This document shows positions 1 to 12,375 of a stretch of DNA of 64,000 nt, piece after piece. Each line of letters starts with the position of its first letter. Positions within the stretch are counted from its first letter, which is position 1. A program made the translations under genes and the position numbers. This DNA comes from Alphaproteobacteria bacterium (GTDB lineage: Bacteria > Pseudomonadota > Alphaproteobacteria > CAAGCB01 > CAG-977), in the NCBI GenBank assembly GCA_017616015.1, contig JAFZYY010000019.1:486-64485 (forward strand). The letters are read 5' to 3'. A model generated the notes under the pieces. That model searched no databases, had not been told where the DNA came from, and saw only the letters and a list, made by a program, of their open reading frames with translations.

Positions 1-1250
1 ACAAGCCGTGACAGGTACGGGCATTTTTCCGGCGAAGCTTCCGGCGCGTAGCTCATAATATACTTCCAGATTGCGGCAGGGTCTTCGGAATGGCAGACGC
101 TGACAAGGTTCAGCAAAATCCCGAACGACAAACCCGTTTCCGGCTTCGGCGGATTGCCGTTGTGAATGTGCCAGACGGGGTTGTTGATTTTGTCCTTGTC
201 CTCTTGCCGACCGTAAGCGCCGATGAAGTTCAGGTATTCGTCGGTCGCGCGGGGAATCACGTCAAAGTACAGCCGCTTTGCCGTTTTCGGCTTCTGGTAC
301 ATGAACAAAGACAGCGATTCCGCCGGAGCGTATTTCAGCCATTCTTCCATCGACAAGCCGTTTCCTTTGGACTTGGAAATCTTTTCGCCTTTCTCGTCCA
401 AAAACAGCTCGTACGTCAGGTTTTTCGGAGGTTCTCCGCCTAAAATACGGCAAATCTTGCTTGACAGTTTGACCGAATCCGTCAGGTCTTTACCCGACAT
501 TTCATAGTCGACGCCCAAAGCGTACCACCGCATCGCCCAGTCGGCTTTCCATTGTAGCTTGCAATGCCCACCCGTGACGGGAACGGTCGTTTCCGTGCCG
601 TCTTCGTCGATAAAGGAAACGGTGCCGTTTTCCTTGTCGATTTTTGTCATTGCGACTTGCAGGACGTTGCCCGTTTTCGGCGAAATCGGCAGGAAAGGAG
701 AGTAAGTCGCGCGGCGTTCCTCGCCCAACGTCGGCAACATGACGTTCAAAATTTTTTCGTAATTTTCCAACACTTTTAACAGGGCTTTGTCGTAAATGCC
801 CGTCGTGTAAAGCTCGGTCGCCGACTTGAATTCATAGGTGAAGCCGAACTTGTCCAGAAACGCTTTCAGACAATCGTTGTTGTGATGCCCGAAGCTGTCG
901 TGACAGCCGAACGGATCGGGGATTTTGGTCAAAGGCTTACCTAAGAATTGCCCGACCATTTCCTTGTTGGGAATGTTGTCGGGGACTTTGCGCAGACCGT
1001 CCATATCGTCGGACACGCAGAACAGGCGCACGGGCACGTCGGGATAAAGCGTTTTAAAGGCGTTCATCACCATCGTCGTGCGGGCGACTTCGCCGAACGT
1101 GCCGATATGCGGCAGACCGGACGGACCGTATCCCGTTTCAAACAGGACATAACCCTTTTCGGGAACTTTGCCGCCCAGCTTTTCATTATACAAAGCGCGG
1201 GCTTCTTCAAACGGCCAGGCATTGGCGGTCATAGCGATTGCGGAATCCAT
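1..1250 (-). CDS. lysK: lysyl-tRNA synthetase, class I (LysK type); 3' end cut by window start
   Basis: Manual minus-strand translation from ATG at 1250 gives [27 protein letters not shown]... The class I HIGH region ([10 protein letters not shown]) and a KMSKS-type KISKSKGNG motif are present. The listed plus-strand ORFs 90-443 and 948-1349 are Arg-rich antisense artefacts of this gene. Confidence 0.8.
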
Positions 1251-1349
1251 ATTTTCACCTCTGATAAAAAGTTAAGGTTTGTTGCCGACAGTTTTATAAT
1301 GAAAAGCGGTTTTTGTAAAGAAGGCAAAATCAACGTATTTTGGAAATAA

Positions 1350-1559
1350 CACTAAAAAAAATTATGCAAAATTATCGTATTTTTTTACTGTTTTTATATC
1401 TTTTTAGAGCAAAGCTGATATCGAAAAAAGTAAAATTAAAAAAATAGTGGGTGACAGAAATTCTAAGAAGATAGTATTATGATGATAAAAAATAGATGAT
1501 GTTAAGAACGTTAGACTCTAAAACACATTGAATAAGCCGGATGTGGAGAAGATTTCGTT
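1350..1559 (+). promoter_or_regulatory. AT-rich non-coding leader/promoter region of the methyltransferase island
   Basis: About 210 nt of very AT-rich non-coding sequence (A/T runs, TATAAT-like hexamers) directly upstream of the first island gene. Confidence 0.3.
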
Positions 1560-2612
1560 ATGAGTGGGAACTCAATTTTAAATTGTGCGAAATATTCATC
1601 AAAAAATACGGATGAATGGTATACAACATACGAAACTATAGCAGAAGAAATAAAGTATTATACTAAGCAGTTTTTTGGAAAGGCGGTTTTGTGTAATTGT
1701 GATGATCCGTTTGAATCTAATTTTTGCTATTACTTTTTAAAAAACTTTAATAAGTTACGGTTAAAAAAACTTGTTTGCACTTCCTATGCTGGTTCAAAAA
1801 TTGATCAAATTAAAAATGATAGACAGGTGCCGTTAAAAATGTTTCTTAATACGGGAGAACCTGTAACGGTTGGCAGAGGGTATGTGCTTACAATAACTGA
1901 GATTCCAGGAAGGATTGGAAAAGAGGTTGATGATTTAACTATAAAGAAAATTCTTTCAAAAAAAGGAGTCGTAAAAAAATTAATCGGAAATGGAGATTTT
2001 AGAAGTGAAGAATGTGTTAAGTACTTGAAAGAATGTGATATTTGTTGCACTAATCCGCCGTTTAGTTTGTTTGTGGATTTATTTTCGCTGTTGGTTAAAT
2101 ACAATAAGCTATATTTGTTGATAGGTAATCAAAATGCCATTACATATAAAGAAATATTTCCCTATATAAAAGAAAATAAAGCATGGGTCGGATATAAATT
2201 CGGAGATATGGCGTTTAGAGTGCCTGCCGATACAGAACCTCGGAATACCAGATTTTGGGTTGATGAAGCCGGACAAAAATGGAGAAGCTTGGGAAACGCG
2301 ATGTGGCTTACCAATATAGATATTAAAAGAAAATATCAGAAGTTAGAATTAACTAAATACTATAATCCAGAAGTATATCCAAAATTTGATAATTTTGAAG
2401 GAATTAATGTAAAAAAAGTCGCAGATATTCCGGTCGATTACGACGGAATAATGGGTGTTCCTATTACATATATTAAATATCATAATAGTTCTCAATTCGA
2501 AATTATAGGTGAAGCTAATCACGGATCGGATAATGAATTTGATTTATTTAAACCTAAAGTAAATGGTAGAGAATTATTTAAAAGAATCCTGATTCGTCGA
2601 AAGGGTAAATAA
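1560..2612 (+). CDS. putative N6-adenine (amino) DNA methyltransferase
   Basis: 350-aa ORF with motif IV NPPF (CTNPPFSLF) and an N-terminal DEWYT (FxTP-like motif X) element. AT-rich codon usage. It is separated by 3 nt from the downstream C5-MTase. Confidence 0.55.
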   Translation: MSGNSILNCAKYSSKNTDEWYTTYETIAEEIKYYTKQFFGKAVLCNCDDPFESNFCYYFLKNFNKLRLKKLVCTSYAGSKIDQIKNDRQVPLKMFLNTGEPVTVGRGYVLTITEIPGRIGKEVDDLTIKKILSKKGVVKKLIGNGDFRSEECVKYLKECDICCTNPPFSLFVDLFSLLVKYNKLYLLIGNQNAITYKEIFPYIKENKAWVGYKFGDMAFRVPADTEPRNTRFWVDEAGQKWRSLGNAMWLTNIDIKRKYQKLELTKYYNPEVYPKFDNFEGINVKKVADIPVDYDGIMGVPITYIKYHNSSQFEIIGEANHGSDNEFDLFKPKVNGRELFKRILIRRKGK

Positions 2613-2615
2613 AGA

Positions 2616-3683
2616 ATGGCAAAAAAATTTAGAATCCTTGATTTGTTTTGCGGAGCGGGCGGCCTTTCATGGGGGTTGCATAAAAACAGAAATTTTAAGA
2701 CCGTTGTTGCGTTGGATCTTGATGAAAATGCGGCGAATACGTTTAAGAAGAATATGCCGGATACCGAAGTGTTTGTGGGAGACATAACGGATAATGTTAT
2801 TAAAGAAAGAATAATAGCTTGTTCTAAAAAAAAGAAAATCAATATGATTGTTGGTGGTCCGCCTTGTCAGGGTTATTCAATGAAAGGAAAAAAGCTCGGT
2901 CTGGCGGATCCTAGAAACTTTTTATTTCAAGAGTATTTGAATATAGTTAAGGAAATACAACCGGAAGTTTTTGTTATTGAAAATGTGAAAGGACTCCTGA
3001 TTTCATTAAAAGGTTGGTTCAAAGGTGAAATAATCCAATCTATAGAAAGATTGGGATATCATGTTGAATATGGAATCCTGAATGCGGCAGATTTTGGTGT
3101 TCCACAGTCAAGAGAAAGAGCTATATTTATTTGTTCTAAGGAAAAATCCATTCCATTGCCTAAAGCTACTGTTGTTAAAAGGACTACCGTTAGAGACGCA
3201 ATCAGCGATTTGGCATATTTGAATTCGGGAGAGGGGGGGTTTGAACAAGCATATCGTATCGATGCGCAAAGCGAATATCAGAAACTGCTAAGAAAAGGAA
3301 GCAATAAACTGTACAATCATAAAGCTTCAAATCATAAAAATATAGCTATAGAAAAACTAAAGTTAATATCTCCGGAACAAGGTAAAGAATGTCTTCCGGA
3401 AGAAATAATAGGAAAGCAAAAATTTAAGACTACGTGGGGACGCTTAAAATGGGATGAAGTTTCTCCTACAATTGATACCAGATTTGATGCTTCATCGAAT
3501 GGAACAAATAATCATCCTTATTTGCATCGGGCGATAACACCAAGGGAAGCGGCGAGAATACAATCCTTTGATGATGTGTTCGTTTTTTATGGATCGAAAG
3601 TATGCGTTAGAAAACAAGTAGGGAATGCAGTTCCGCCATTATTGGCAAAAGCTATCGCGGATCAGATTGAGAAGAATTTCTAG
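2616..3683 (+). CDS. DNA cytosine-5 methyltransferase
   Basis: All canonical C5-MTase motifs are present: FCGAGG (I), GGPPCQGYS (IV, catalytic Cys), ENVKGL (VI), QSRERAIFI (VIII), GNAVPP (X). Confidence 0.9.
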   Translation: MAKKFRILDLFCGAGGLSWGLHKNRNFKTVVALDLDENAANTFKKNMPDTEVFVGDITDNVIKERIIACSKKKKINMIVGGPPCQGYSMKGKKLGLADPRNFLFQEYLNIVKEIQPEVFVIENVKGLLISLKGWFKGEIIQSIERLGYHVEYGILNAADFGVPQSRERAIFICSKEKSIPLPKATVVKRTTVRDAISDLAYLNSGEGGFEQAYRIDAQSEYQKLLRKGSNKLYNHKASNHKNIAIEKLKLISPEQGKECLPEEIIGKQKFKTTWGRLKWDEVSPTIDTRFDASSNGTNNHPYLHRAITPREAARIQSFDDVFVFYGSKVCVRKQVGNAVPPLLAKAIADQIEKNF

Positions 3684-4595
3684 ATGAAAAGGAAAGCAGT
3701 AATGAATGTGGAAATGGCATATCTGCTTGGAATGATTGTGGGAAATGGTGAAATACAAAGAGGAACGATAGAAACGACAATTTCCATTGATATACCACAT
3801 AAGAAATTAGAAACTGAATTTCAGCATGATGTGGGAATTTACGTCAAGGCAAGTATTACGGATATTAGAAATGTGTTAGAGCCGTTGCTTGGCACATCGC
3901 TTAATTTTACGCAAAATGCAAATGTCTCATTGCTGTCGTTCCGAAAACCGAATGAAGATTATTTGATGCGTGAAATTTTAAGATATATAGGCGGGGCCAC
4001 AAGTTCCGATAATGCAAGAATTTCACAGGAGATGTTTGGTTTTACATTTGACGAGAGAAAGCATTTTGTGAAAGGTTTTGCTGATGTTACGGGATACATT
4101 CGAAGAAGTAATTACGCTTTTTCTGAGCCTAATTACAGGGTGTATTTTGAAATTCCGCATAATTGGGGATTGGTTGTAGATTTTTGTAATTTACTAAAAA
4201 GTATTGACATACCGGTTCAAGCTATAGACTGGGCCCATCCCAATATGAGAGACGGTAATTTAACTAAATATAATCAAGGCAAGTCCGATTTTTGGAAAAA
4301 AGAACATCAAGTTAAAGTATGGGCTTTGGAATATCAACCGGTTGGGTTTGTTGTATTACATAAGCAACAGGCGTTGGATTATTTTGCGAAAGAACAGAAG
4401 AAAAATTATGTGGTGCAAGGGAAAGATCCGGCAGAGCGACTTCATAGATATTATTGGGAACTCACTCAAAAAATAAGAGAAAAACCTATACATCCTGCAG
4501 AAAATGATGAATTTATTCCTGTTGAAATAAGAGGAAAGCATTATAATAGTTGGACAGAGATCGCGAAAGATTTAGGATATGGTAAAGACGAATAA
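3684..4595 (+). CDS. hypothetical protein with two degenerate LAGLIDADG-like motifs (candidate nuclease/specificity subunit of the island)
   Basis: 303 aa. Starts 1 nt after the C5-MTase stop. AYLLGMIVGNGE at residues 12-23 and KGFADVTGYI at residues about 120-130 are spaced about 108 aa apart, as in single-chain LAGLIDADG proteins, but the catalytic acids are replaced (N, T). Confidence 0.5.
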   Translation: MKRKAVMNVEMAYLLGMIVGNGEIQRGTIETTISIDIPHKKLETEFQHDVGIYVKASITDIRNVLEPLLGTSLNFTQNANVSLLSFRKPNEDYLMREILRYIGGATSSDNARISQEMFGFTFDERKHFVKGFADVTGYIRRSNYAFSEPNYRVYFEIPHNWGLVVDFCNLLKSIDIPVQAIDWAHPNMRDGNLTKYNQGKSDFWKKEHQVKVWALEYQPVGFVVLHKQQALDYFAKEQKKNYVVQGKDPAERLHRYYWELTQKIREKPIHPAENDEFIPVEIRGKHYNSWTEIAKDLGYGKDE

Positions 4596-5076
4596 TGTTA
4601 ATTTGGAAGAAGAGTTGTACGAGCCAATGCGATTGTGGCTTGAACGATATGTAAAAGATAAATGCAAAAATTATGAAGTTGTAGCTGTCGATGCGCATGC
4701 CGAACGATTAGATCGAGTGTTGGTAAAATATGAAATAGTAAATGAAATGGCAAATGGCGTTGATATTCAAATAGATGTTTTAGCAATCGCAAAGAAAAAT
4801 AATGATATGAAGCTTTTTTTTATTGAGGCAAAGAAAACTCAATTAACATTAAGAGATTTGGGACAATTATGGTCGTATTGTAAGTTGGTGGATCCTGATG
4901 AAGCGTTTTTAATATCTTCTTTGGGATTAGGGAGTTTAAATAAGTTGTTAAACGCATTCAGAAGAGAGGATCTTTTAGATTTCGGTAATGGTAAGAAAAT
5001 CAAAAAAATGAAAGTAGCTAAATGGGATATTAGAACCAATTCCCCAGATATAATGAGTATGGTTCCTAAAATATAA
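4579..5076 (+). CDS. hypothetical PD-(D/E)xK nuclease-fold protein
   Basis: 165 aa. Overlaps the upstream ORF by 17 nt, suggesting translational coupling. Motif ...GVDIQIDVLAIAKKNNDMKLFFIEAKK... gives D-x(n)-E-A-K in the expected beta-strand context. Confidence 0.55.
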   Translation: MVKTNNVNLEEELYEPMRLWLERYVKDKCKNYEVVAVDAHAERLDRVLVKYEIVNEMANGVDIQIDVLAIAKKNNDMKLFFIEAKKTQLTLRDLGQLWSYCKLVDPDEAFLISSLGLGSLNKLLNAFRREDLLDFGNGKKIKKMKVAKWDIRTNSPDIMSMVPKI

Positions 5077-5093
5077 AATGAGGAGAGAAAGGT

Positions 5094-5438
5094 ATGAGTG
5101 TTGCACAGCAAATAGATCAATTTTTTCAGAGCACAGGCCAGTCTGTATTCATTGAAGCTGAAGCAAAGGAAAGTAGAATATTAAGCTTTATAAGAGATTA
5201 TAATTCTAAATATTCTTTAAACTTAAGAATTTCAGATGAGGGTATTATTTCGTTGGGCGAAGATGCGAATAAGTGGGGGCTTGAATTGCGATGCTATTTT
5301 ATAGATCGTACAGGTATTCCGGCGGGTGTTCAGGTGACATCGAATAGAGCCTATCGTGCGGAATATCCGTATAGATTTAATGATGTCGATGTAATCCAGG
5401 AATTATTTGATTTAGGATATAGAATTGGTCTTAACTGA
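5094..5438 (+). CDS. hypothetical protein (last gene of the AT-rich island)
   Basis: 114-aa ORF with an SD-like aggagagaaagg upstream. Same strand and composition as the island. Confidence 0.45.
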   Translation: MSVAQQIDQFFQSTGQSVFIEAEAKESRILSFIRDYNSKYSLNLRISDEGIISLGEDANKWGLELRCYFIDRTGIPAGVQVTSNRAYRAEYPYRFNDVDVIQELFDLGYRIGLN

Positions 5439-5516
5439 TGAAATACTAAAGAATTATCTTTAGAAAAAGAGACTCTTTCGTGATTTATCATCTGTTGTAT
5501 TCGGGAAGGAACCATC

Positions 5517-8279
5517 GTGACGGAAGATCGTCCGCTGGCTATGGCGGCAGGGTTGAAAGAGTTCGTGTTGACGACGGCGGACGGGGAGTTTTCCCGCGCC
5601 GTGCCGATGCACGAGGTTTTCCGCATGGTCAAAAACGCGCCCGTTCTGGTTTGCAACCGGTCTTTGATGAAAGGGCGGTTGGGCGGACGGATGCCGGCGA
5701 CCGTTTTGGACGTGTTGGAGTTGTTCGCTTTCGTCTGTCCGGCGCAGAACGTCGTTCCGACCGCCAAAGAAATCGCCGCTTTTTTGAATATCACGAAGCC
5801 GACGAACGCTTTCGAAGAAGCGCGCTGTCTGTTTACGATCACGCGAATCCTGCTGTCCAAGCTGGCGGCGTTTAATGCGGAGGAAAGCAAGCAGGCGACC
5901 GATCTGGCAATCACGATGACGCGGGACGGTGGCTGGATCTGGGGCGCGGACGTACTGGCTGCTTTGGGGCGCGATCCGCGTTCTTTGGGCGTGACCGGAT
6001 TGACGGGCTTTGCGGTTTGGAACCATCTGACCGAGTGGCAGGAAAGCGCGCCCGAACCGCCGGCCGGGACTCAACCGGTCGAAGCGTTTGAAGCCGAACA
6101 AAAACTGAAAGAATTGCTTGCCGTGCCGTCCGACGGCTTTACGGTGGAAGATCGCGCCGATCAGTTTTCTTACGCGAGAACAACGGCAAAAGCTTTCGCG
6201 CCGCGGGCGGACGAGGGCGTTCCCGTCACCGTTCTGGCGCAGGCGGGGACAGGGATCGGCAAAACGCTCGGCTATCTGGCGCCGGCGGGGGTGTGGAGCG
6301 ATAAAAACGCCGGCACGGTCTGGATCAGCACTTTTACCCGCAATCTGCAAAGACAACTTGAAAACGAGCTGTCGCGCCTTTATCCCGACGCGACGACAAA
6401 GCGCCGCAACGTCGTCGTGCGCAAAGGGCGGGAAAATTATCTGTGCCTGTTGAACTTCGCCGAAGCGGTCGGACGGATACAAAGTTCTCCGCAATCCTCC
6501 GTGCCGTTGGGGCTGATCGCCCGCTGGATCGCCAAAACGAAGGACGGCGATTTAAGCGGCGGGGACTTTCCCGGCTGGCTGGCCGACATGCTGAACCGGC
6601 AAAGTTTGGAAAGTCTGGCGGATCAGAGGGGCGACTGTATTTACGCCCAATGCCCGCACTATAAAAAATGCTTTATCGAAAAGGTCTTGCGCCGCAGCCG
6701 GCACGCGAAAATCGTCGTTGCCAATCATGCTCTGGTGATGACGCAGCTGGCGGGCGCGGCGGACGAAGGCTTGCTGCCGGTTCGCTTTATTTTTGACGAA
6801 GGGCATCAGCTGTTCAACGCGGCGGACGATATTTTCGCAGGCGAAATCAATCTGCGCGAAGGCATGGAGATGCGCCGCTGTCTTGTAGGGGCGGAGGATC
6901 GCCGCCACGCCGGACGGGCGCAGGGGATCCGCCGCAGGATTGAAGATTTGTCTCTGATCGTACCGGACATCAATCTGACCGTGCAGGATATTGCCGCTTT
7001 ATCCGCTTTCCTGCCTAAAAGCGGCGCTTTGTCAAGACTGAAAAACAGGACGCCGCAGGGGAGCTTCGAAAAGTTTCTGACGCAGGTTTACCGGCAGGTC
7101 ACCGCCCGCGCGGAGCAAACCGACGTGCTGTATTCTCTGGAATGCGAGCCGCGCCCCGTCGCGCCGGAACTGGCCGAAGCGGCAAAAGAGCTTTACGCCG
7201 ACGTCAAGGCTCTGGAAGAAAAAGTCCGCTTGCTGATCCGTCTGATCGAAAAATATCTGAACGACGAAGCGGCGGACATCGAAACGGCGGATAAGCAACG
7301 ATATACGGCGGTCTTGCGGTCGCTGAAAAAAACGGCGGCGGAACCGCTGGCGGTCTGGCGGCTGATGCTGGAACAGCTGGAATTGAAAACGCCGTCGGAC
7401 TTTGTGGATTGGCTGGAAATCACGCGCACGGACGGCTATGACAGCGACGTGGGCTATCACCGCCACTGGATCGACCCGACATTTCCTTTTGCTCATTCGT
7501 TGAAGCAGGCGGCGCACGGCGTTTTAATCACATCGGCGACGCTGACGGACAGAAGCGGGGAGACGGAAACCGACTGGCTTCACGCGATGAAAAGAACCGG
7601 AGCAGAGCATCTGAACACGCCGGAGCTGCCGTTCGATTTAACAAAGGCGGACTTTGAATCGCCGTTCGATTACGGGAAAAATTCCCGCGTGCTGATCATC
7701 ACGGACGTGAACAAAGCGAACTATGACGAAGTGGCTTCGGCGTATAGGGAGTTGTTTCTGGCGACACAGGGCGGGGGTTTGGGCATTTTCACGGCAATAA
7801 AACGACTGAAAGAGGTTTACCGCCGCATCAAAGACCCGCTGGCGGAGGCGGGGTTGCCGCTGTTGGCTCAACATATTGACACGGTGAACCTGCAAACGCT
7901 CTTGGATATTTTCAAAGCGCAGGAGGACGCCTGTCTGCTCGGGACGGACGCGGTTCGGGACGGTATCGACGTTCCGGGGAAATCGCTTCGAATGATTGTG
8001 TTCGACCGTGTGCCGTGGCACCGGCCGTCCATCGCGCACAAAGCTAGAAAAGAAAAGTTCGGCGAAACGGGCGAGGCGTACAATTTAATGCTGGTGCGCA
8101 TGAAGCTGGCGCAGGCGTTCGGTCGCCTGATTCGTAAAAAAGACGACAAAGGCGTGTTCGTCCTGCTTGACCGCGCGATCCCCAGCGAAACGCTGACCGC
8201 TTTCCCGAAAGACACGCCGATTGAAAAACTCGGCCTGAAAGACGCGCTGGAAAAGATTAAAGAGTTTTTTGGCGGGTAG
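5517..8279 (+). CDS. dinG: ATP-dependent DNA helicase, DinG/Rad3 (XPD) family, with about 200-aa N-terminal extension
   Basis: Walker A AGTGIGKTLGYL, DEGH box (FIFDEGHQLF), and an Fe-S cysteine cluster (ENYLCLLN...CIYAQCPHYKKC). GTG start. GC-rich, unlike the island upstream. Confidence 0.8.
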   Translation: MTEDRPLAMAAGLKEFVLTTADGEFSRAVPMHEVFRMVKNAPVLVCNRSLMKGRLGGRMPATVLDVLELFAFVCPAQNVVPTAKEIAAFLNITKPTNAFEEARCLFTITRILLSKLAAFNAEESKQATDLAITMTRDGGWIWGADVLAALGRDPRSLGVTGLTGFAVWNHLTEWQESAPEPPAGTQPVEAFEAEQKLKELLAVPSDGFTVEDRADQFSYARTTAKAFAPRADEGVPVTVLAQAGTGIGKTLGYLAPAGVWSDKNAGTVWISTFTRNLQRQLENELSRLYPDATTKRRNVVVRKGRENYLCLLNFAEAVGRIQSSPQSSVPLGLIARWIAKTKDGDLSGGDFPGWLADMLNRQSLESLADQRGDCIYAQCPHYKKCFIEKVLRRSRHAKIVVANHALVMTQLAGAADEGLLPVRFIFDEGHQLFNAADDIFAGEINLREGMEMRRCLVGAEDRRHAGRAQGIRRRIEDLSLIVPDINLTVQDIAALSAFLPKSGALSRLKNRTPQGSFEKFLTQVYRQVTARAEQTDVLYSLECEPRPVAPELAEAAKELYADVKALEEKVRLLIRLIEKYLNDEAADIETADKQRYTAVLRSLKKTAAEPLAVWRLMLEQLELKTPSDFVDWLEITRTDGYDSDVGYHRHWIDPTFPFAHSLKQAAHGVLITSATLTDRSGETETDWLHAMKRTGAEHLNTPELPFDLTKADFESPFDYGKNSRVLIITDVNKANYDEVASAYRELFLATQGGGLGIFTAIKRLKEVYRRIKDPLAEAGLPLLAQHIDTVNLQTLLDIFKAQEDACLLGTDAVRDGIDVPGKSLRMIVFDRVPWHRPSIAHKARKEKFGETGEAYNLMLVRMKLAQAFGRLIRKKDDKGVFVLLDRAIPSETLTAFPKDTPIEKLGLKDALEKIKEFFGG

Positions 8280-8363
8280 CACTCCGAAGCGCTGACGAAA
8301 AGACTTTTCGACTTGATATAAAGAGTAGGGCTGTTTATTCTAAAACGAAATTATTTAAGGATA

Positions 8364-9209
8364 ATGGTTATGCTAAAACGTTTTTTGCTTCTTTTCAGTT
8401 TGTCTGTTTTGCCTTCCTGTTCGCAGGATTTGATTTATTCCGAAACAGCGCCGTCTTGGGTGAACGCCGTTCGTTCCGGCGACAGTTCCCTGCGTGTTGT
8501 ATCAGGGGATAAAATTTTATTCAGAGCCAATCAAAAAGGAAGCGGAAGCGATAAACGGGAAAATGTTTGTGTTGCTGCGATAGAAAAAAACGTTTCTTAT
8601 ATCAAGAAAGCATATCCGTCTTTAGTTCAAATTCCAATGACGGTTGAGTTGGTATTTTTTGATCCTAAAGTAAATGACTGTTCAACGACAATCAGCGTAT
8701 CTCGGCAACTGATGGAAAAGGCTGAAGTTTTGGCCAAATTAAAAAGTCAATATGACAAGGAAAAGAAAAGGTTAAAAGCAGAAACAGAAAAAATTCAGAA
8801 TGATTTGAAAAAAACAAATGCGGAAAAAGTGGTATTAGAAAGTAAAATCAAAAAGCTGAATGAACTTATCGCCCAAAATCAAAGCTATGCGAAACAGATA
8901 AAGACACTAGAAGATTTTGTAGAAAGTGTGAAAAATGAAAGAAAGCAAATTAAACAAAAAATAGAAAATTACATTTATACAGGAATGAACCCTGAAGAAG
9001 TCGGAAAAATTATGCGCGGACACAATTATCAGAGTGGTCTTGCAATAGATTCAGTATGTAGTACGGATCTTAATTATTATACTCGATATATGGATTATGT
9101 CCTGTGTGGAGTGAAATTACCATATAACGATGATGCAGAAGTGGGGTTTGTTACAGAAATTTGTAATTTAAGAGCAAATTCCTGTTACATAAAAGAATTG
9201 GAATATTAA
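8364..9209 (+). CDS. AT-rich lipoprotein with central coiled coil
   Basis: Signal peptide plus lipobox (LSVLPSC). A long K/E-rich heptad region (KLKSQYDKEKKRLKAETEKIQNDLKK...). The composition is clearly AT-richer than its neighbours. Confidence 0.6.
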   Translation: MVMLKRFLLLFSLSVLPSCSQDLIYSETAPSWVNAVRSGDSSLRVVSGDKILFRANQKGSGSDKRENVCVAAIEKNVSYIKKAYPSLVQIPMTVELVFFDPKVNDCSTTISVSRQLMEKAEVLAKLKSQYDKEKKRLKAETEKIQNDLKKTNAEKVVLESKIKKLNELIAQNQSYAKQIKTLEDFVESVKNERKQIKQKIENYIYTGMNPEEVGKIMRGHNYQSGLAIDSVCSTDLNYYTRYMDYVLCGVKLPYNDDAEVGFVTEICNLRANSCYIKELEY

Positions 9210-9267
9210 GAATCAGTCGTTCTGCTCTTTTTCCAAACAGAATTTTTCCCTTTCTCTTGTTTGCGCT

Positions 9268-9294
9268 CGACGGGCGGGCGTTCCCGTTTTTTTC
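9268..9294 (+). terminator. rho-independent terminator after lipoprotein gene
   Basis: Hairpin acgggcgggcgttcccgt followed by a T7 run. Confidence 0.5.
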
Positions 9295-9376
9295 AGATTG
9301 TTTCTCTGTCCGCTTGACTTTTCGGCGCATTGCGCTACAAATTTGAAAAAATGTTTTTCAGAAAAGGATTTGTCTT

Positions 9377-10849
9377 ATGGAAGTCAGAAGCAGATTTGCT
9401 CCTTCGCCGACGGGATATATGCACATCGGCAATTTGCGCACCGCTTTGTATGAATATCTGGTCGCCAAAAGCATGGGCGGCAAGTTTATCCTGCGCATCG
9501 AGGACACCGATCAGGAACGCTATGTCGAAGGCGCGGTCGATATCATTTACAAAACAATGGAAATGGTCGGGCTGAAGCACGACGAAGGTCCCGATGTCGG
9601 CGGCGATTACGGCCCTTATGTTCAATCCGAGCGCAAGGCGATTTACAAGGAATACGCCGATAAGCTGGTTGACTTGGGCGGCGCGCATTATTGCTTTTGC
9701 TCGGAAGAGGAATTGGAACGTCAGCGCAAGGAATGTGAGGAAGCGGGTATTCCCTTCAAATTCCGCGACCCCTGCAAGCGCATCAGCGTCGAAGACGCCC
9801 GCAAACGCATTGCCGCAGGCGAAAAATACACCGTCCGCCAGACGATCGATCCGAAAGGCACGGTGTCTTTCGACGACCATGTTTATGGTCATGTCACGGT
9901 GGAAACAAAGACGCTCGACGAAGGCATTCTGCTGAAATCGGACGGATTGCCGACGTACAATTTCGCAAACGTGGTTGACGATCATCTGATGAAGATCACG
10001 CACGTTCTGCGCGGCAACGAATATCTGTCGTCCACGCCGAAATACAATCTGATTTATCAGGCGTTCGGGTGGGACATTCCCGAATACGTCCACCTGCCGC
10101 CGATCATGAAGGACGAGCATAACAAGTTGTCCAAGCGTAACGGCGATGCGTCGTTTCAGGACTTGGTCGCGAAAGGCTATCTGCCCGAAGCGATCGTGAA
10201 CTACATCATTCTTTTGGGCTGGAGCGCCAAGAACGACGAGGAAATCTTCTCGATGGCGGAATTGGAAAAGATTTTCAACATTGACGGCATCAATAAGTCT
10301 CAGGCGATTTTCGACGGCGAAAAGCTGAAATGGATGAACGGCGTTTACGTTCGCAATTTGCCGCCCGAAAAATTCCACGAACTCGCTTTGCCATATTACA
10401 AAGACGCCGTGAAACGCGATGTCGATTTGGTTCTGTTGTCGAAGTGCGTTCAGCCGCGCGTCAACGTTTTGAACGAAATTCCGGAAGCAGTCGATTTCAT
10501 AGACGCTTTGCCGGAATACGACATCGAAATGTACGTCCATAAGAAAATGAAAACGACGCCGGAAATCGCTCTGAAAGCTTTGGAAGAGGCCGAAAAGGTT
10601 GTCGAAGGCATGACGGATTGGTCTTCGGTCGAAGCGGTGCACGAAGCTTTGTTGGCGATGCCTGAAAAGCTCGGGCTGAAGAACGGGCAGTTTTTGTGGC
10701 CGATCCGCACGGCTCTGACGGGCAAGCAATGCACGCCGACAGGTGCTGTCGAAGCGGCGTATCTGCTGGGCAAAGACGAAAGCCTTAAGCGTATTCGCAT
10801 AGGCATTGCAAAACTGACAGACGGAAACGCGGCTCTGTCGCGCGTTTAA
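9377..10849 (+). CDS. gltX: glutamyl-tRNA synthetase
   Basis: HIGH motif (YMHIGNLRTALY), KMSKS-like KLSKRNG, typical GltX length (490 aa). Confidence 0.92.
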   Translation: MEVRSRFAPSPTGYMHIGNLRTALYEYLVAKSMGGKFILRIEDTDQERYVEGAVDIIYKTMEMVGLKHDEGPDVGGDYGPYVQSERKAIYKEYADKLVDLGGAHYCFCSEEELERQRKECEEAGIPFKFRDPCKRISVEDARKRIAAGEKYTVRQTIDPKGTVSFDDHVYGHVTVETKTLDEGILLKSDGLPTYNFANVVDDHLMKITHVLRGNEYLSSTPKYNLIYQAFGWDIPEYVHLPPIMKDEHNKLSKRNGDASFQDLVAKGYLPEAIVNYIILLGWSAKNDEEIFSMAELEKIFNIDGINKSQAIFDGEKLKWMNGVYVRNLPPEKFHELALPYYKDAVKRDVDLVLLSKCVQPRVNVLNEIPEAVDFIDALPEYDIEMYVHKKMKTTPEIALKALEEAEKVVEGMTDWSSVEAVHEALLAMPEKLGLKNGQFLWPIRTALTGKQCTPTGAVEAAYLLGKDESLKRIRIGIAKLTDGNAALSRV

Positions 10850-10881
10850 TCCGGCGATAATGTGCTGTAAACGGAGGGAGT

Positions 10882-11166
10882 ATGGAAATAAACGACTACG
10901 ATTTTCTGTTCAATGATGACGGCGAATTGATGCTGGTATTTGACGGGTTTGACGAAGAACCCGAAAATCCGTGCCTGACCCTGAGGGATTCTCAGGCGAC
11001 GCTGATCCGCTCCGATAAAATGCCGACTTTGCATATCAAAGACGTGCCGAACGATATTTGGGCTACACTGGAAAGCGTTCCGCAGATTCTGGTTTGCGAA
11101 ATGGACGAAGACGGCGAACCCGCGCAAGTCTATGACGCGCCCGTAAAGAAGATTTTTAACGCGTAA
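10882..11166 (+). CDS. small acidic hypothetical protein
   Basis: 94-aa ORF with an SD ggaggg upstream, lying between gltX and dapL. Confidence 0.45.
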   Translation: MEINDYDFLFNDDGELMLVFDGFDEEPENPCLTLRDSQATLIRSDKMPTLHIKDVPNDIWATLESVPQILVCEMDEDGEPAQVYDAPVKKIFNA

Positions 11167-11175
11167 GGAAACCCG

Positions 11176-12375
11176 ATGATTAAGGCTAATCCCTATTATT
11201 CCGATTTGTCTGCCAACTACCTGTTTCAGGAAATCGCCAAGAAAATCAAAGCGTTTAAAGAAAAAACGCCCGACGCCGACGTAATCAGTCTGGGCATCGG
11301 CGACGTGACGCAGCCTATTCCTTCGGCGTGCGTCGAAGCGATGAAGAAAGCGGCGGACGAAATGGCGTCCGCTTCGACGATGCGCGGTTACGGGCCGGAG
11401 CAGGGCTACGAATTTTTGCGTCAGGCAATAGTGGATAACGACTATAAAGCGCGCGGCGTTGACATTGATACCGACGAAGTGTTCGTTTCGGACGGCGCGA
11501 AATGCGATGTCGGCAATATTCAGGAGCTGTTTGCAACCGATATTCTGGTCGCCGTGCCCGATCCCGTTTATCCGGTCTATCGCGACACGAACATTATGGC
11601 GGGACGGAAAATCGAATTTCTGCCCTGCACAAAGGAAACGGGATTTTCTCCGGCTTTTCCGAAAGGTCATGCGGAGCTGATTTATTTGTGCTCTCCGAAC
11701 AATCCGACGGGAGCGGTTTTAACGAAAAAAGATTTGGCGGCGTGGGTGAAATACGCGAAAGAAAACGGCGCGGTCATCGTGTTCGATTCCGCCTATAAGG
11801 AATATATTTCTACGCCCGGCATTCCGCACAGCATTTACGAAATCAAAGGGGCGAAAGATGTTGCGATCGAGCTTCGTTCTTTCTCCAAAACGGCGGGCTT
11901 TACGGGCGTGCGCTGCGCTTATATGGTTGTGCCGAAAGCGCTGAAAGCGATCGGCGGCAAGGGTGAAGAGGTATCCTTGAATGCGATGTGGAGCCGTCGC
12001 CATTGCACGAAATTCAACGGCGTCGCGTATGTCGTTCAGCGGGCGGCTGAAGCGGTCTTTTCGCCCGAAGGCAAAGAGCAGGTGCGCGCCATGGTCGGCT
12101 ATTACATGGAAAACGCGCGGTTGATCCGCGAAACGCTGGCGGCCAAAGGATTTATCGTGTACGGCGGTGTCGATGCCCCGTATATCTGGCTTGCGACGCC
12201 AAAGGGCATGACGTCCGTCGATTTGTTTGAAAAGCTCTTAAACGAAGCGCAGCTGGTCTGCACGCCGGGATCGGGTTTCGGTCAATGCGGCGAAGGCTTT
12301 GTGCGTCTGACGTCGTTCGGATCGCGCGAAAACACGTTGAAGGCTCTGGACAGGATAGGAAAACTCGCTTTATGA
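11176..12375 (+). CDS. dapL: LL-diaminopimelate aminotransferase
   Basis: Strong similarity by recall to chlamydial/plant DapL (MIKANPYYSDLSANYLFQEIAKK..., ISLGIGDVTQPIP, CSPNNPTGAVL, SFSKTAGFTGVR with the PLP lysine). Confidence 0.85.
   Translation: MIKANPYYSDLSANYLFQEIAKKIKAFKEKTPDADVISLGIGDVTQPIPSACVEAMKKAADEMASASTMRGYGPEQGYEFLRQAIVDNDYKARGVDIDTDEVFVSDGAKCDVGNIQELFATDILVAVPDPVYPVYRDTNIMAGRKIEFLPCTKETGFSPAFPKGHAELIYLCSPNNPTGAVLTKKDLAAWVKYAKENGAVIVFDSAYKEYISTPGIPHSIYEIKGAKDVAIELRSFSKTAGFTGVRCAYMVVPKALKAIGGKGEEVSLNAMWSRRHCTKFNGVAYVVQRAAEAVFSPEGKEQVRAMVGYYMENARLIRETLAAKGFIVYGGVDAPYIWLATPKGMTSVDLFEKLLNEAQLVCTPGSGFGQCGEGFVRLTSFGSRENTLKALDRIGKLAL

Follow-up and report, generated by a model that had tools for sequence, protein, structure and literature searches.

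Type IIT restriction-modification systems such as BtsI, BsrDI and BspD6I combine two strand-specific methyltransferases, separate or fused, with a large endonuclease subunit and a small one of ~160-190 aa, an arrangement that resembles the cassette analysed here (PMC4081073, PMC2909958). Recognition by the large subunit and cutting by the small one is the division of labour expected of such enzymes (PMC4081073, PMC2909958). In BtsI and BsrDI the large subunit also nicks the DNA at its site, leaving the second strand to the small one. The large subunit of BtsI carries a canonical PD-ExK site, P57/D58/E72 (PMC2909958). According to the description of Type IIT/IIS enzymes, asymmetric sites are usually handled by one adenine-type plus one cytosine-type methyltransferase in each locus (PMC4081073). 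FokI-type Type IIS enzymes use a sequence-reading module to position a small non-specific PD-(D/E)xK nuclease, which may have to dimerise transiently to cut both strands; the logic that we propose for the cassette is alike. In Type IIS systems of the HphI, Hin4II and Esp3I type, an asymmetric site has an m6A methyltransferase for one strand and an m5C methyltransferase for the other, as two proteins or as a fusion, next to a single large endonuclease of the HNH or PD-(D/E)xK kind; our cassette likewise has one adenine and one cytosine methyltransferase.

The cassette lies in a 64,000-nt stretch of an Alphaproteobacteria bacterium contig (the window). We consider it fairly probable that this horizontally acquired block is a restriction-modification cassette of Type II directed at an asymmetric site, in which the endonuclease joins targeting by a LAGLIDADG-fold protein (O3) to cleavage by a PD-(D/E)xK protein (O4). 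Such a restriction enzyme would appear to be of a new kind, and LAGLIDADG is not mentioned in two surveys of Type II enzymes, from 2008 and 2014. Type IIT, in which a large subunit is joined by a small one and each strand has its methyltransferase, would seem a closer label for it than Type IIS, which implies cutting outside the site.

Layout and origin of the cassette

The preliminary description had listed five co-directional genes, and all five are present as closely spaced ORFs at 1560-5438 on the + strand, with lysK on one side and a DinG-like helicase gene on the other:

1350..1559, + strand, leader, AT-rich, non-coding, upstream of the cassette; GC about 0.29-0.31
1560-2612, + strand, gene 1 (M1), 350 aa
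2616-3683, + strand, gene 2 (M2), 355 aa
3684 to 4595, + strand, gene 3 (O3), ORF open from 3684 (303 aa); likely 3702-4595 (297 aa)
4579-5076, + strand, gene 4 (O4), 165 aa; alternative start TTG 4603
5094-5438, + strand, gene 5 (O5), 114 aa

Measured by ORF ends the spacings are 3 nt, 0 nt, a 17-nt overlap and 17 nt, as first described, but the second value probably needs revision. The true start of gene 3 is most likely the ATG at 3702, because a ribosome-binding-like site (AAAGGAAAG) lies upstream of it and nearly all of the homologs among the matches listed have ~297 aa and start with MNVEM; the gap after gene 2 would therefore be 18 nt and not 0. Gene 4 may start at the TTG at 4603 rather than at 4579, since many of its homologs are 158 aa long.

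The cassette is horizontally acquired. The GC content of the block 1350-5460 is 0.341 against 0.498 +/- 0.017 (minimum 0.452) for windows of the same length in the rest of the 64 kb, giving z = -9.1, and GC3 is 0.25-0.30 in the five cassette genes compared with 0.68-0.70 in both flanking genes. The AT-richness noted earlier was thus confirmed, and with it the foreign origin, for which these two contrasts are the reason. Consistent with this, positions 1559-5436 are collinear, at 77% nucleotide identity, with a cassette in an Erysipelotrichaceae metagenome-assembled genome, and the nearest relatives are found in low-GC Bacillota. The flanks had been named correctly: upstream is a class I lysyl-tRNA synthetase gene on the minus strand, ending near 1250 (PF01921, E = 4e-136), and downstream a DinG-type helicase gene (Helicase_C_2 and DEAD). 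The borders are as plain as had been described, with no tRNA gene found by ARAGORN in 1-12000, no meaningful repeats at the cassette borders and no integrase ORF between the lysK and helicase genes. The leader contains a single promoter-like site, GTGACA-18-TATTAT at 1451-1480 (10/12 consensus match); in a consensus scan the number of such sites in this region was not above shuffled expectation. It is not conserved in the closest cassette, L007, where homology begins at 1559.

Methyltransferases and their linkage to O3-O4

The m6A and m5C pair proposed for genes 1 and 2 stands, both proteins giving full-length, high-scoring family matches. M1 is an N6-adenine DNA methyltransferase of the EcoRI_methylase family (PF13651, E = 4.6e-106; PADLOC MTase_II, E = 2e-103), and the NPPF motif ascribed to it is present as CTNPPF. 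M2 is a C5-cytosine DNA methyltransferase (PF00145, E = 6e-74; TIGR00675 dcm, E = 9e-66) with all the conserved motifs that had been claimed, namely FCGAGG, GGPPCQGYS, ENV, QSRERAIF and GNAVPP. Their identities to the counterparts in the L001 cassette are 71% for M1 and 74% for M2, and in some loci the two are fused into one protein of ~700 aa.

Homologs of the downstream ORFs could have turned out never to lie beside methyltransferases; the opposite was found, with near-constant co-occurrence for O3-O4. O3 and O4 are neighbours in the ~150 loci examined, O4 directly downstream of O3: they are adjacent in 86/86 loci of the gut/rumen clade and in all 68 environmental loci that leave room downstream (ORF calling showed it in 62, six-frame hmmsearch in 6). 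Two proteins of ~540-557 aa, P0283 and P0298, are fusions in which the O3 region is followed by the O4 motifs YEP..W, D, ESK and QLLxY. The earlier suggestion of a split or heteromeric nuclease is supported by this adjacency, by the fusions and by the near-constant methyltransferase linkage.

The pair almost always adjoins one or two DNA methyltransferases. Bacteria, archaea, plasmids and phages with O3-O4 beside methyltransferases number in the hundreds, and the window cassette is one copy of a very widespread type and not a one-off. The methyltransferase families are swapped between loci, as a modification-sensitive nuclease would predict of a constant O3-O4 core. We found EcoRI-like m6A with m5C enzymes (separate or fused), m5C with a gamma-class N6 enzyme, and gamma-class N6 with a beta-class N4/N6 enzyme. 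A distant clade has an adjacent beta-class methyltransferase in 54/58 loci, often together with a D12-class one; the other 4/58 have O3-O4 with no recognisable methyltransferase alongside. On a Heimdallarchaeota contig O3-O4 is followed by a methyltransferase. The minimal unit is a fused methyltransferase with O3 and O4: a 6.5-kb Lactiplantibacillus (L.) plantarum plasmid encodes rep, a 700-aa fused methyltransferase, O3 and O4, and two gut phages carry an annotated DNA methyltransferase of ~700 aa followed by O3 and O4. An excisionase gene lies just upstream of the unit in one of these phages. The cassette occurs across many phyla and often in defence islands with AbiA, McrBC and GmrSD genes. 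Extra nuclease-type proteins (NOV_C, SfsA-like, HARE-HTH) vary around the core, and several loci have separate small HTH proteins, HTH_17 or HTH_26/HTH_3, at the head of the operon.

The candidate endonuclease subunits

O3 is shown here to be a two-domain LAGLIDADG-fold protein of 297 aa. The fold given for gene 3 at the outset therefore holds, but a canonical cutter it does not appear to be, as neither LAGLIDADG helix has D or E at its penultimate position in any of 145 sequences (145/145). The residues at the two catalytic positions are R/N and A/T/G, and judged by them the canonical active sites are dead; O3 is therefore probably a targeting subunit and not a LAGLIDADG-type cutter, and we propose it as the large, DNA-targeting subunit of the endonuclease. 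Monomeric LAGLIDADG homing endonucleases (I-Tsp061I, I-DmoI, PI-SceI, PI-PfuI) differ from it in having the acidic residues and in lacking its conserved hairpin insert (WGHPN…EHQ) and 60-aa C-terminal tail, and O3 lies outside any intron or intein and shares its operon with a PD-(D/E)xK protein and methyltransferases. Recognition by a two-domain LAGLIDADG saddle typically spans 14-22 bp. A site that long is far beyond what two methyltransferases could protect, which means that O3 must bind DNA in another way than homing enzymes do. The same dead pattern is known from WhiA, which is unable to cut DNA (PMC3384342). WhiA/DUF199 is a domesticated, catalytically dead LAGLIDADG scaffold with a C-terminal HTH that serves Gram-positive bacteria as a conserved, chromosomally encoded transcription factor, whereas O3 lacks the HTH and is a mobile protein linked to a nuclease and to methyltransferases.

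Conservation in O3 is uneven. Across the family the beta-sheets of domain 1 are its most variable part (2.1-2.8 bits) and the sheets and hairpin of domain 2 the most conserved (0.8-1.6 bits); within the clade having methyltransferases in common both domains are conserved. In domain 2, D128, R146, H179, P180, E201 and H202 are 100% invariant among 145 homologs, and N181 and Q203 nearly so. O3 identity is 85% between the window and L001, above the 71-74% of the methyltransferases, and 59-89% across phyla. Restriction enzymes normally diverge fast, and such conservation is unusual for them.

The PD-(D/E)xK assignment first made for gene 4 is supported, and from its motifs O4 appears to be a nuclease of the RecB/Cas4-like type, which we propose as the small, cleavage subunit. 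It has the set E…D…ExK…QxxxY, and across 56 homologs at 25-77% identity there is no variation at W20, D66, E83, K85, Q96 and Y100 and hardly any at E10. Sub-threshold Pfam matches recur to DUF234 (15/56), HSDR_N_2 (8/56) and YhcG_C (19/71), which we take to be PD-(D/E)xK-clan families, and there is a weak, sub-threshold PADLOC match to Cas4d (E = 0.003). Unlike Cas4, O4 lacks the four-cysteine Fe-S cluster (a single Cys, C101, is conserved), and unlike the RecB/Cas4 family it has no helicase partner and only ~160 aa. In profile searches neither O3 nor O4 matched PDB chains at E <= 10 beyond chance-level, unrelated proteins; the BspD6I subunits being presumably in the PDB, no sequence relationship to them is seen.

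Proposed mechanism and alternative readings

In the scheme that we infer, M1 (m6A) and M2 (m5C) would each protect one strand, and restriction would fall to a two-subunit enzyme of O3 and O4. O3 would act as a monomeric, pseudo-dimeric LAGLIDADG scaffold binding the unmethylated site, with specificity supplied by its variable N-terminal domain and the conserved C-terminal domain as functional core, and would hold O4, which would cut the DNA. A double-strand break could arise if two O4 subunits dimerise, as in FokI, or from a second, non-canonical catalytic centre in domain 2 of O3 (D128, H179-P-N, E201-H-Q), as in Type IIT enzymes such as BtsI and BsrDI. Against this scheme stand the unusual conservation of O3, the long sites read by two-domain LAGLIDADG saddles, the sub-threshold level of the Pfam and PADLOC matches of O4, the few loci with O3-O4 but no recognisable neighbouring methyltransferase, and one genome, Metallumcola, in which O4 is missing beside O3. 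Fused recognition/cleavage forms occur in FokI-type enzymes as they do for O3-O4; the two are usually separate polypeptides here, and recognition would be by a LAGLIDADG fold and not by winged-helix domains.

O3 may itself be catalytic through the domain 2 cluster. The system would then be a Type IIT enzyme in the strict sense, in which each subunit has a catalytic centre, O3 acting as a strand-specific nickase and O4 cutting the other strand. Large/small-subunit enzymes with two methyltransferases provide the precedent (PMC4081073, PMC2909958), although O3 has a LAGLIDADG fold in place of the PD-ExK motif of the BtsI large subunit. The cluster sits in the conserved core and is invariant in homologs with differing methyltransferase partners, therefore a role in specificity is unlikely; a Metallumcola genome has a methyltransferase and O3 without O4. 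That locus adjoins an IS element, however, and may be decaying, and the cluster fits no known nuclease motif, draws nothing in the PDB profile search and could equally be a surface for docking O4 or binding the DNA backbone. We regard this reading as unlikely. It is very unlikely that O4 alone is the restriction endonuclease and O3 a WhiA-like, non-catalytic regulator timing methyltransferase and nuclease expression like a controller: O3-O4 fusions exist, the 165-aa O4 is nearly all nuclease core with little room for reading an asymmetric site, several loci already have their own small HTH proteins, and O3 is conserved beyond every other protein of the cassette and present without exception, unlike a typical regulator.

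The fold of O3 is otherwise typical of selfish homing elements, its conservation is unusually high, the cassette is highly mobile and its core is decorated by variable nucleases, all of which would suit an element other than a classical restriction system: O3-O4(-O5) could form a selfish module of the homing or addiction kind, or a defence that is triggered and not constitutive, with the methyltransferases as antidote or epigenetic marker. We find this highly improbable, as the canonical homing site is dead in every member, an intron or intein context is absent, and the constant pairing with strand-complementary methyltransferase sets, together with their swapping, fits a modification-sensitive nuclease. 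Addiction behaviour is in any case already known of Type II systems.

The favoured O3-O4 restriction enzyme leaves gene 5 outside the core. A three-ORF nuclease module had been envisaged; genes 3 and 4 do form a linked core, but an O5-domain protein is present in 73/87 loci, missing from 14/87, and absent from the minimal plasmid copy. O5 had no match in Pfam or PDB and, on sequence grounds, is a previously undescribed domain and a facultative accessory of the module. It would be dispensable, and may be an adaptor bringing an extra NOV_C nuclease in other loci. Its homologs (hhalign 97-99.7%) are a 'long' form of ~150 aa and the N-terminal domain of a nuclease protein with NOV_C (PF13020), which in other loci sits between M2 and O3.

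The cassette and its origin

The cassette lies within positions 1350-5460 of the window and consists of five tightly packed + strand ORFs, in the arrangement that had been proposed from the sequence alone:

1560-2612, + strand: gene 1 (M1), DNA methyltransferase
2616-3683, + strand: gene 2 (M2), DNA methyltransferase
3702-4595, + strand: gene 3 (O3), LAGLIDADG-fold protein, 297 aa
4579-5076, + strand: gene 4 (O4), 165 aa, PD-(D/E)xK motifs
5094-5438, + strand: gene 5 (O5), 114 aa

Two start positions need slight adjustment. The ORF of gene 3 is present as described, but it most likely begins at the ATG at 3702 and not at 3684: a ribosome-binding-like AAAGGAAAG lies upstream of this ATG, and a length of about 297 aa is shared by nearly all listed homologs. 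Gene 4 may start at TTG 4603.

M1 is a full-length N6-adenine methyltransferase of the EcoRI_methylase family (PF13651, E = 5e-106) with an NPPF motif, and M2 a full-length C5-cytosine methyltransferase (PF00145, E = 6e-74; TIGR00675) carrying the PCQ, ENV, QxRxR and GNAVPP motifs. These family matches and catalytic motifs substantiate the m6A plus m5C pair of the preliminary description. PADLOC 2023 matched only the methyltransferases of the cassette (MTase_II, DruM/DrmMII-like), with no hit for O3 or O5.

Both the AT-rich block and the deviant composition sought as a sign of foreign DNA are evident: GC is 0.341 across 1350-5460 versus 0.498 +/- 0.017 in equal-sized windows over the rest of the 64 kb (minimum 0.452; z = -9.1), and GC3 is 0.25-0.30 in the five cassette genes versus 0.68-0.70 in both flanking genes. 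Upstream lies a class I lysyl-tRNA synthetase gene (lysK, minus strand; PF01921, E = 4e-136) and downstream a DinG-type helicase gene (Helicase_C_2 + DEAD). The classical hallmarks of a genomic island (integrase, tRNA target, flanking direct repeats) were not found around the cassette, in agreement with the earlier finding of none at its borders between lysK and the helicase gene. Positions 1559-5436 are collinear over their whole length with a contig of an Erysipelotrichaceae metagenome-assembled genome (MAG) at 77% nucleotide identity. The low GC is therefore that of its source, low-GC Bacillota of the gut or rumen. The acquisition of the cassette by its host looks recent. A second AT-rich patch (8364-9209; GC ~0.32 vs ~0.50) follows directly after the helicase gene and may likewise have been inserted from a foreign source; its 281-aa ORF combines a lipoprotein-like N-terminus with a long coiled coil and has a weak coiled-coil match as its sole Pfam hit.

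Predicted folds and conserved residues of O3 and O4

Neither O3 nor O4 had a usable match in Pfam, NCBIfam, PADLOC or the PDB sequences, and profile searches of the PDB sequences with the family alignments were likewise empty. With 13 close homologs only, AlphaFold2 modelled O3 at a pLDDT of 41. A good model (pLDDT 93.8, pTM 0.92) was obtained from 145 sequences with identity down to 23%, and only once a profile search had supplied homologs of 26-36% identity. The Foldseek matches of this model in the PDB and among viral models agree and all point one way: judged by its predicted structure, O3 is a member of the LAGLIDADG (DOD) structural superfamily, as its description as LAGLIDADG-like had anticipated.

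The two 'LAGLIDADG' helices of O3 comprise residues 3-16 (YLLGMIVGNG) and 123-131 (VKGFADVTG). In homing enzymes the metal-binding Asp or Glu stands at the penultimate position of each LAGLIDADG motif, as D21 and E117 do in I-DmoI (PMC3384342). Across the 145 O3 sequences position 15 is R (110), N (32) or K (3) and position 130 is A (64), T (43), G (24) or, in the remainder, C, S or N; Asp or Glu was found at either canonical catalytic position in 0 of 145. Homing endonucleases have acidic catalytic residues in these motifs and reside in group I introns or inteins or stand free at a homing site, whereas O3 lacks the acidic residues and is encoded in an operon of the order methyltransferase gene - O3 - O4. 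O3 belongs to the superfamily but lacks two features that define homing endonucleases, namely the catalytic carboxylates and a location in an intron or intein.

The invariant residues of O3 (D128, R146, H179, P180, E201 and H202) and the near-invariant N181 and Q203 are all in domain 2, where the WGHPN…EHQ residues border the beta3'-beta4' hairpin. Family-wide, variability is highest in the beta-sheets of domain 1 (2.1-2.8 bits) and lowest in the sheets and hairpin of domain 2 (0.8-1.6 bits); among the close relatives of the gut clade, which has common methyltransferases, segments of both domains are conserved. We read this as a putative variable specificity domain joined to a constant functional core, and the core could serve in O4 docking, in gripping the DNA backbone or as a new active site.

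Among 56 homologs of 25-77% identity, O4 always keeps W20, D66, E83, K85, Q96 and Y100, and nearly always E10. Together they form the E…D…ExK…QxxxY motif set of RecB/Cas4-type PD-(D/E)xK nucleases, and the catalytic D…(D/E)xK motif formerly assigned to gene 4 is thus present and invariant across the 56 sequences. Sub-threshold Pfam matches of family members include DUF234 (15/56), HSDR_N_2 (8/56), YhcG_C (19/71), UPF0102 and NA-iREase1, which we take to be PD-(D/E)xK-clan families; other families recur at the same level. These sub-threshold matches are what supports the alpha-beta-beta-beta-alpha-beta restriction-endonuclease-like fold predicted for O4. PADLOC gave weak, chance-level matches to O4, among them Cas4d (E = 0.003). 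O4 does not have the features of Cas4: it has one conserved Cys (C101) versus the four for an Fe-S cluster, and no cas genes are nearby.

The O3-O4 family and a model for its function

At E <= 1e-3 we found 1855 homologs of O3 and 2183 of O4, the best 120 of each being 76-100% identical; a MAG recorded as 'Alphaproteobacteria bacterium' encodes an identical O3. When one genome was scanned for each species, relatives came up in 181 species. The 80 loci retrieved from these include members of Bacillota, Bacteroidota, Spirochaetota (including Treponema socranskii ATCC 35536), Campylobacter, Desulfovibrionaceae, Anaerolineaceae, Synergistaceae and Elusimicrobia-type MAGs. O3 of the gut/rumen clade retains 59-89% identity between hosts as far apart as Bacillota, Bacteroidota, Spirochaetota, Campylobacterota and the present alphaproteobacterium, and the clade is therefore a clear marker of recent gene flow between phyla. 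The pair is also mobile in a minimal form: on a 6,495-bp Lactiplantibacillus plantarum plasmid, a 700-aa fused methyltransferase, O3 and O4 are accompanied by rep, DUF536 and a YafQ toxin, and in two gut phages (Ca. Heliusvirales) a ~700-aa annotated DNA methyltransferase is followed by O3 and O4, in one of them with an excisionase gene just upstream of the unit. Carriers available in culture include L. plantarum P9 (the host of this plasmid), Butyrivibrio sp. X503, Anaerotignum neopropionicum DSM 3847, T. socranskii ATCC 35536 and Merdimmobilis hominis An559.

When 1.84 billion cluster representatives were searched with a profile, 294 O3 clusters (50% identity level) matched at E <= 1e-3, and more than 456 metagenome loci hold the family. 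With a diverse O3 alignment, a second search reached homologs of 26-36% identity in Heimdallarchaeota, Promethearchaeota, Bathyarchaeia, Elusimicrobiota, Poribacteria and Metallumcola, where the context is again methyltransferase, O3 and O4. Among 80 metagenome loci of this distant clade, counting only those with room on the relevant side, a beta-class methyltransferase adjoins the pair in 54 of 58, often preceded by a D12-class one, and O4 follows in 68 of 68 (62 by ORF calling and 6 more by six-frame hmmsearch). An apparent O4-less subclade of six metagenome loci was rejected, since the six-frame search found a full-length O4 in 6/6. A recognisable methyltransferase is missing in 3-4 loci. 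Metallumcola ferriviriculae (L090; CP121694.1, 1318891-1333745) was alone among the loci seen in having a methyltransferase and O3 but, even by six-frame search, no O4. This locus adjoins an IS (rve) element and a TIR/caspase-like cluster; either the copy is decaying or O3 may be able to act alone.

Two cluster representatives of ~540-557 aa (P0283, P0298) are O3-O4 fusions with the O4 motifs YEP..W, D, ESK and QLLxY at the C-terminus. Four others (P0302, P0313, P0318, P0331; 990-1300 aa) end in an O3-like domain preceded by 700-1100 residues that have no Pfam match, and are possibly single-chain relatives. In P0283 and P0298, LAGLIDADG domain 1 further contains a zinc-ribbon-like insertion (CxxC…CxxC), and the O3 region is rich in Cys towards its C-terminal end. 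Most distant O3 homologs keep conserved cysteines (C…IC..LGC in the consensus), which the subfamily of the window has lost. One metagenome contig (L101; Ga0315280_10000365) has two O3 paralogs on either side of the methyltransferase, in the order O3 - beta-class methyltransferase - O3 - O4, which could reflect duplication of a targeting subunit.

In all 86 gut-clade loci retrieved O4 directly follows O3, and in nearly all the pair adjoins methyltransferases. Homologs of the downstream ORFs that never co-occur with methyltransferases had been named as evidence against a joint system; for O3-O4 we found the opposite, a near-constant linkage. Three architectures occur.

Methyltransferase architectures upstream of O3-O4
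A: EcoRI-like m6A plus m5C, separate or fused (~700-720 aa); the type of the window
B: m5C plus a 470-aa gamma-class N6 methyltransferase (N6_Mtase/Eco57I/TaqI_C)
C: gamma-class N6 methyltransferase as in B plus a 258-aa beta-class N6_N4 methyltransferase

Each locus of types A-C always has one adenine-type methyltransferase together with one of cytosine (m5C) or N4/N6 type, and one O3-O4 core is served by interchangeable, non-homologous methyltransferases. Such a pairing is exactly what a nuclease reading one asymmetric site predicts. Because each locus has two methyltransferases of different chemistry and fused forms exist, the recognition site of the system is predicted to be asymmetric. 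Between the window and L001, a related locus, O3 (85% identity) and O4 (78%) are better conserved than the methyltransferases (71% and 74%); higher conservation of the nuclease part is the reverse of the usual restriction-modification pattern.

The best-supported model is a Type II restriction-modification system of the IIT/IIS kind. The two strands of an asymmetric site would be methylated separately, one by M1 and the other by M2, O3 would read the unmethylated site and O4 would cut the DNA, both strands being cut either by FokI-like dimerisation of O4 or with a second centre in O3 domain 2. As regards Type II, methyltransferases with complete motifs and linked candidate endonuclease genes are both present. 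As regards a two-subunit (IIT) enzyme, O3 and O4 are co-inherited, their fusions are known, and there is one clear catalytic motif set, that of O4. That domain 2 of O3 supplies a second, non-canonical catalytic centre is suggested by its invariant residues and counts as a rival reading.

Two other readings of the pair were weighed. WhiA, which a 2012 review on the relatives of homing endonucleases among host proteins describes as built on the LAGLIDADG fold (PMC3384342), does not cut DNA and shows the same non-acidic pattern at the LAGLIDADG catalytic positions as O3. O3 could be merely a WhiA-like regulator, or O3-O4 a selfish or defence module that acts other than by restriction. Both are less likely than the restriction model because O3 and O4 occur fused, O3 is invariant and whole methyltransferase families have been swapped around the pair.

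Among known systems the published layout of Type IIT enzymes is close to that of the cassette: a large subunit recognises the site, a small one cuts a strand, and the two methyltransferases are sometimes one chain (PMC4081073). BtsI and BsrDI were rejected as true relatives, since BtsIB has a PD-ExK site at P57/D58/E72 (PMC2909958) and O3 has nothing comparable. MhoVII (fused methyltransferases, GATG/CATC) is unrelated, its methyltransferases being YhdJ-class and D12-class m6A enzymes. The BslI alpha and beta subunits were also considered, since a 2008 fold survey had left their folds unassigned. That survey and a 2014 review (PMC4081073) give five folds for Type II restriction enzymes (PD-(D/E)xK, HNH, GIY-YIG, PLD and half-pipe) and make no mention of LAGLIDADG. 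A full-text literature search found no description of a LAGLIDADG-fold restriction-modification system, although REBASE may already flag such putative genes. The family annotations examined were hypothetical or nameless save for one UniRef entry, 'LAGLIDADG homing endonuc…', so automated fold-level annotation of the family exists.

On strong comparative and structural evidence we rate the cassette as a putative restriction-modification system with an unprecedented endonuclease architecture. An architecture in which a LAGLIDADG-fold subunit encoded in methyltransferase operons is obligately partnered with a nuclease would be new for restriction-modification systems. Opinion is evenly balanced on the wider proposal that O3-O4 represents a new structural class, in which a LAGLIDADG scaffold without an active site of its own was recruited as the sequence-reading subunit of a detachable PD-(D/E)xK nuclease for short methylatable sites, its specificity diversifying with partner methyltransferases across bacteria, Asgard and other archaea, plasmids and phages. 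If this were true, a sixth fold would be added to the restriction-modification protein repertoire and homing endonucleases would be linked directly to restriction-modification systems. Annotation pipelines for defence and restriction-modification have probably overlooked a large family. The LAGLIDADG scaffold is the one used for engineered meganucleases, and a natural version that reads short sites and leaves cutting to a separate nuclease could serve as a template for engineering.

O5 and accessory genes

O5 has no known relatives in Pfam, NCBIfam, PADLOC or the PDB sequences, including a profile search of the PDB. It shares homology with a ~150-aa 'long' form and with the N-terminal domain of a 358-aa NOV_C (PF13020) nuclease protein (hhalign 97-99.7%), whose gene follows the methyltransferase genes and precedes O3 in other loci of types A and B; NOV_C is a PD-(D/E)xK domain. 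The 358-aa protein is directly upstream of O3 in the related loci L001-L006 (6922-7998), L008, L010, L012, L017, L018, L024, L027-L031 and L034. An O5-domain protein is present in 73 of 87 loci.

Forms of the O5 domain, by number of loci
Short form only: 26
O5-NOV_C fusion: 19
Long + short forms: 18
Long form only: 7
O5-NOV_C fusion + long form: 2
Long + long forms: 1

In the type-A loci inspected the short form and the NOV_C fusion replace one another and were not found together, and the minimal L. plantarum plasmid copy has no O5 domain. We treat O5 as a facultative adaptor or accessory. A half-LAGLIDADG domain was considered and found unsupported (hhalign probability against O3 profiles <= 25%).

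Architecture C loci (L039-L077) have accessory genes of their own: a 225-aa SfsA-like nuclease (12 loci), a 121-aa ORF (9), a 313-aa HARE-HTH protein (8), and small HTH_26/HTH_3 or HTH_17 proteins at the head of the operon, with TnpV or recombinase genes nearby. The cassette is often found within defence islands. In L001 (9455-16900) McrBC, an AbiA-type HEPN/reverse-transcriptase protein and a protein with an FRG domain are encoded nearby; GmrSD is directly downstream in the phage locus L089 (4202-6295), and a PLD-family NgoFVII-like endonuclease is a neighbour in a further related locus, L144 (143-1057).
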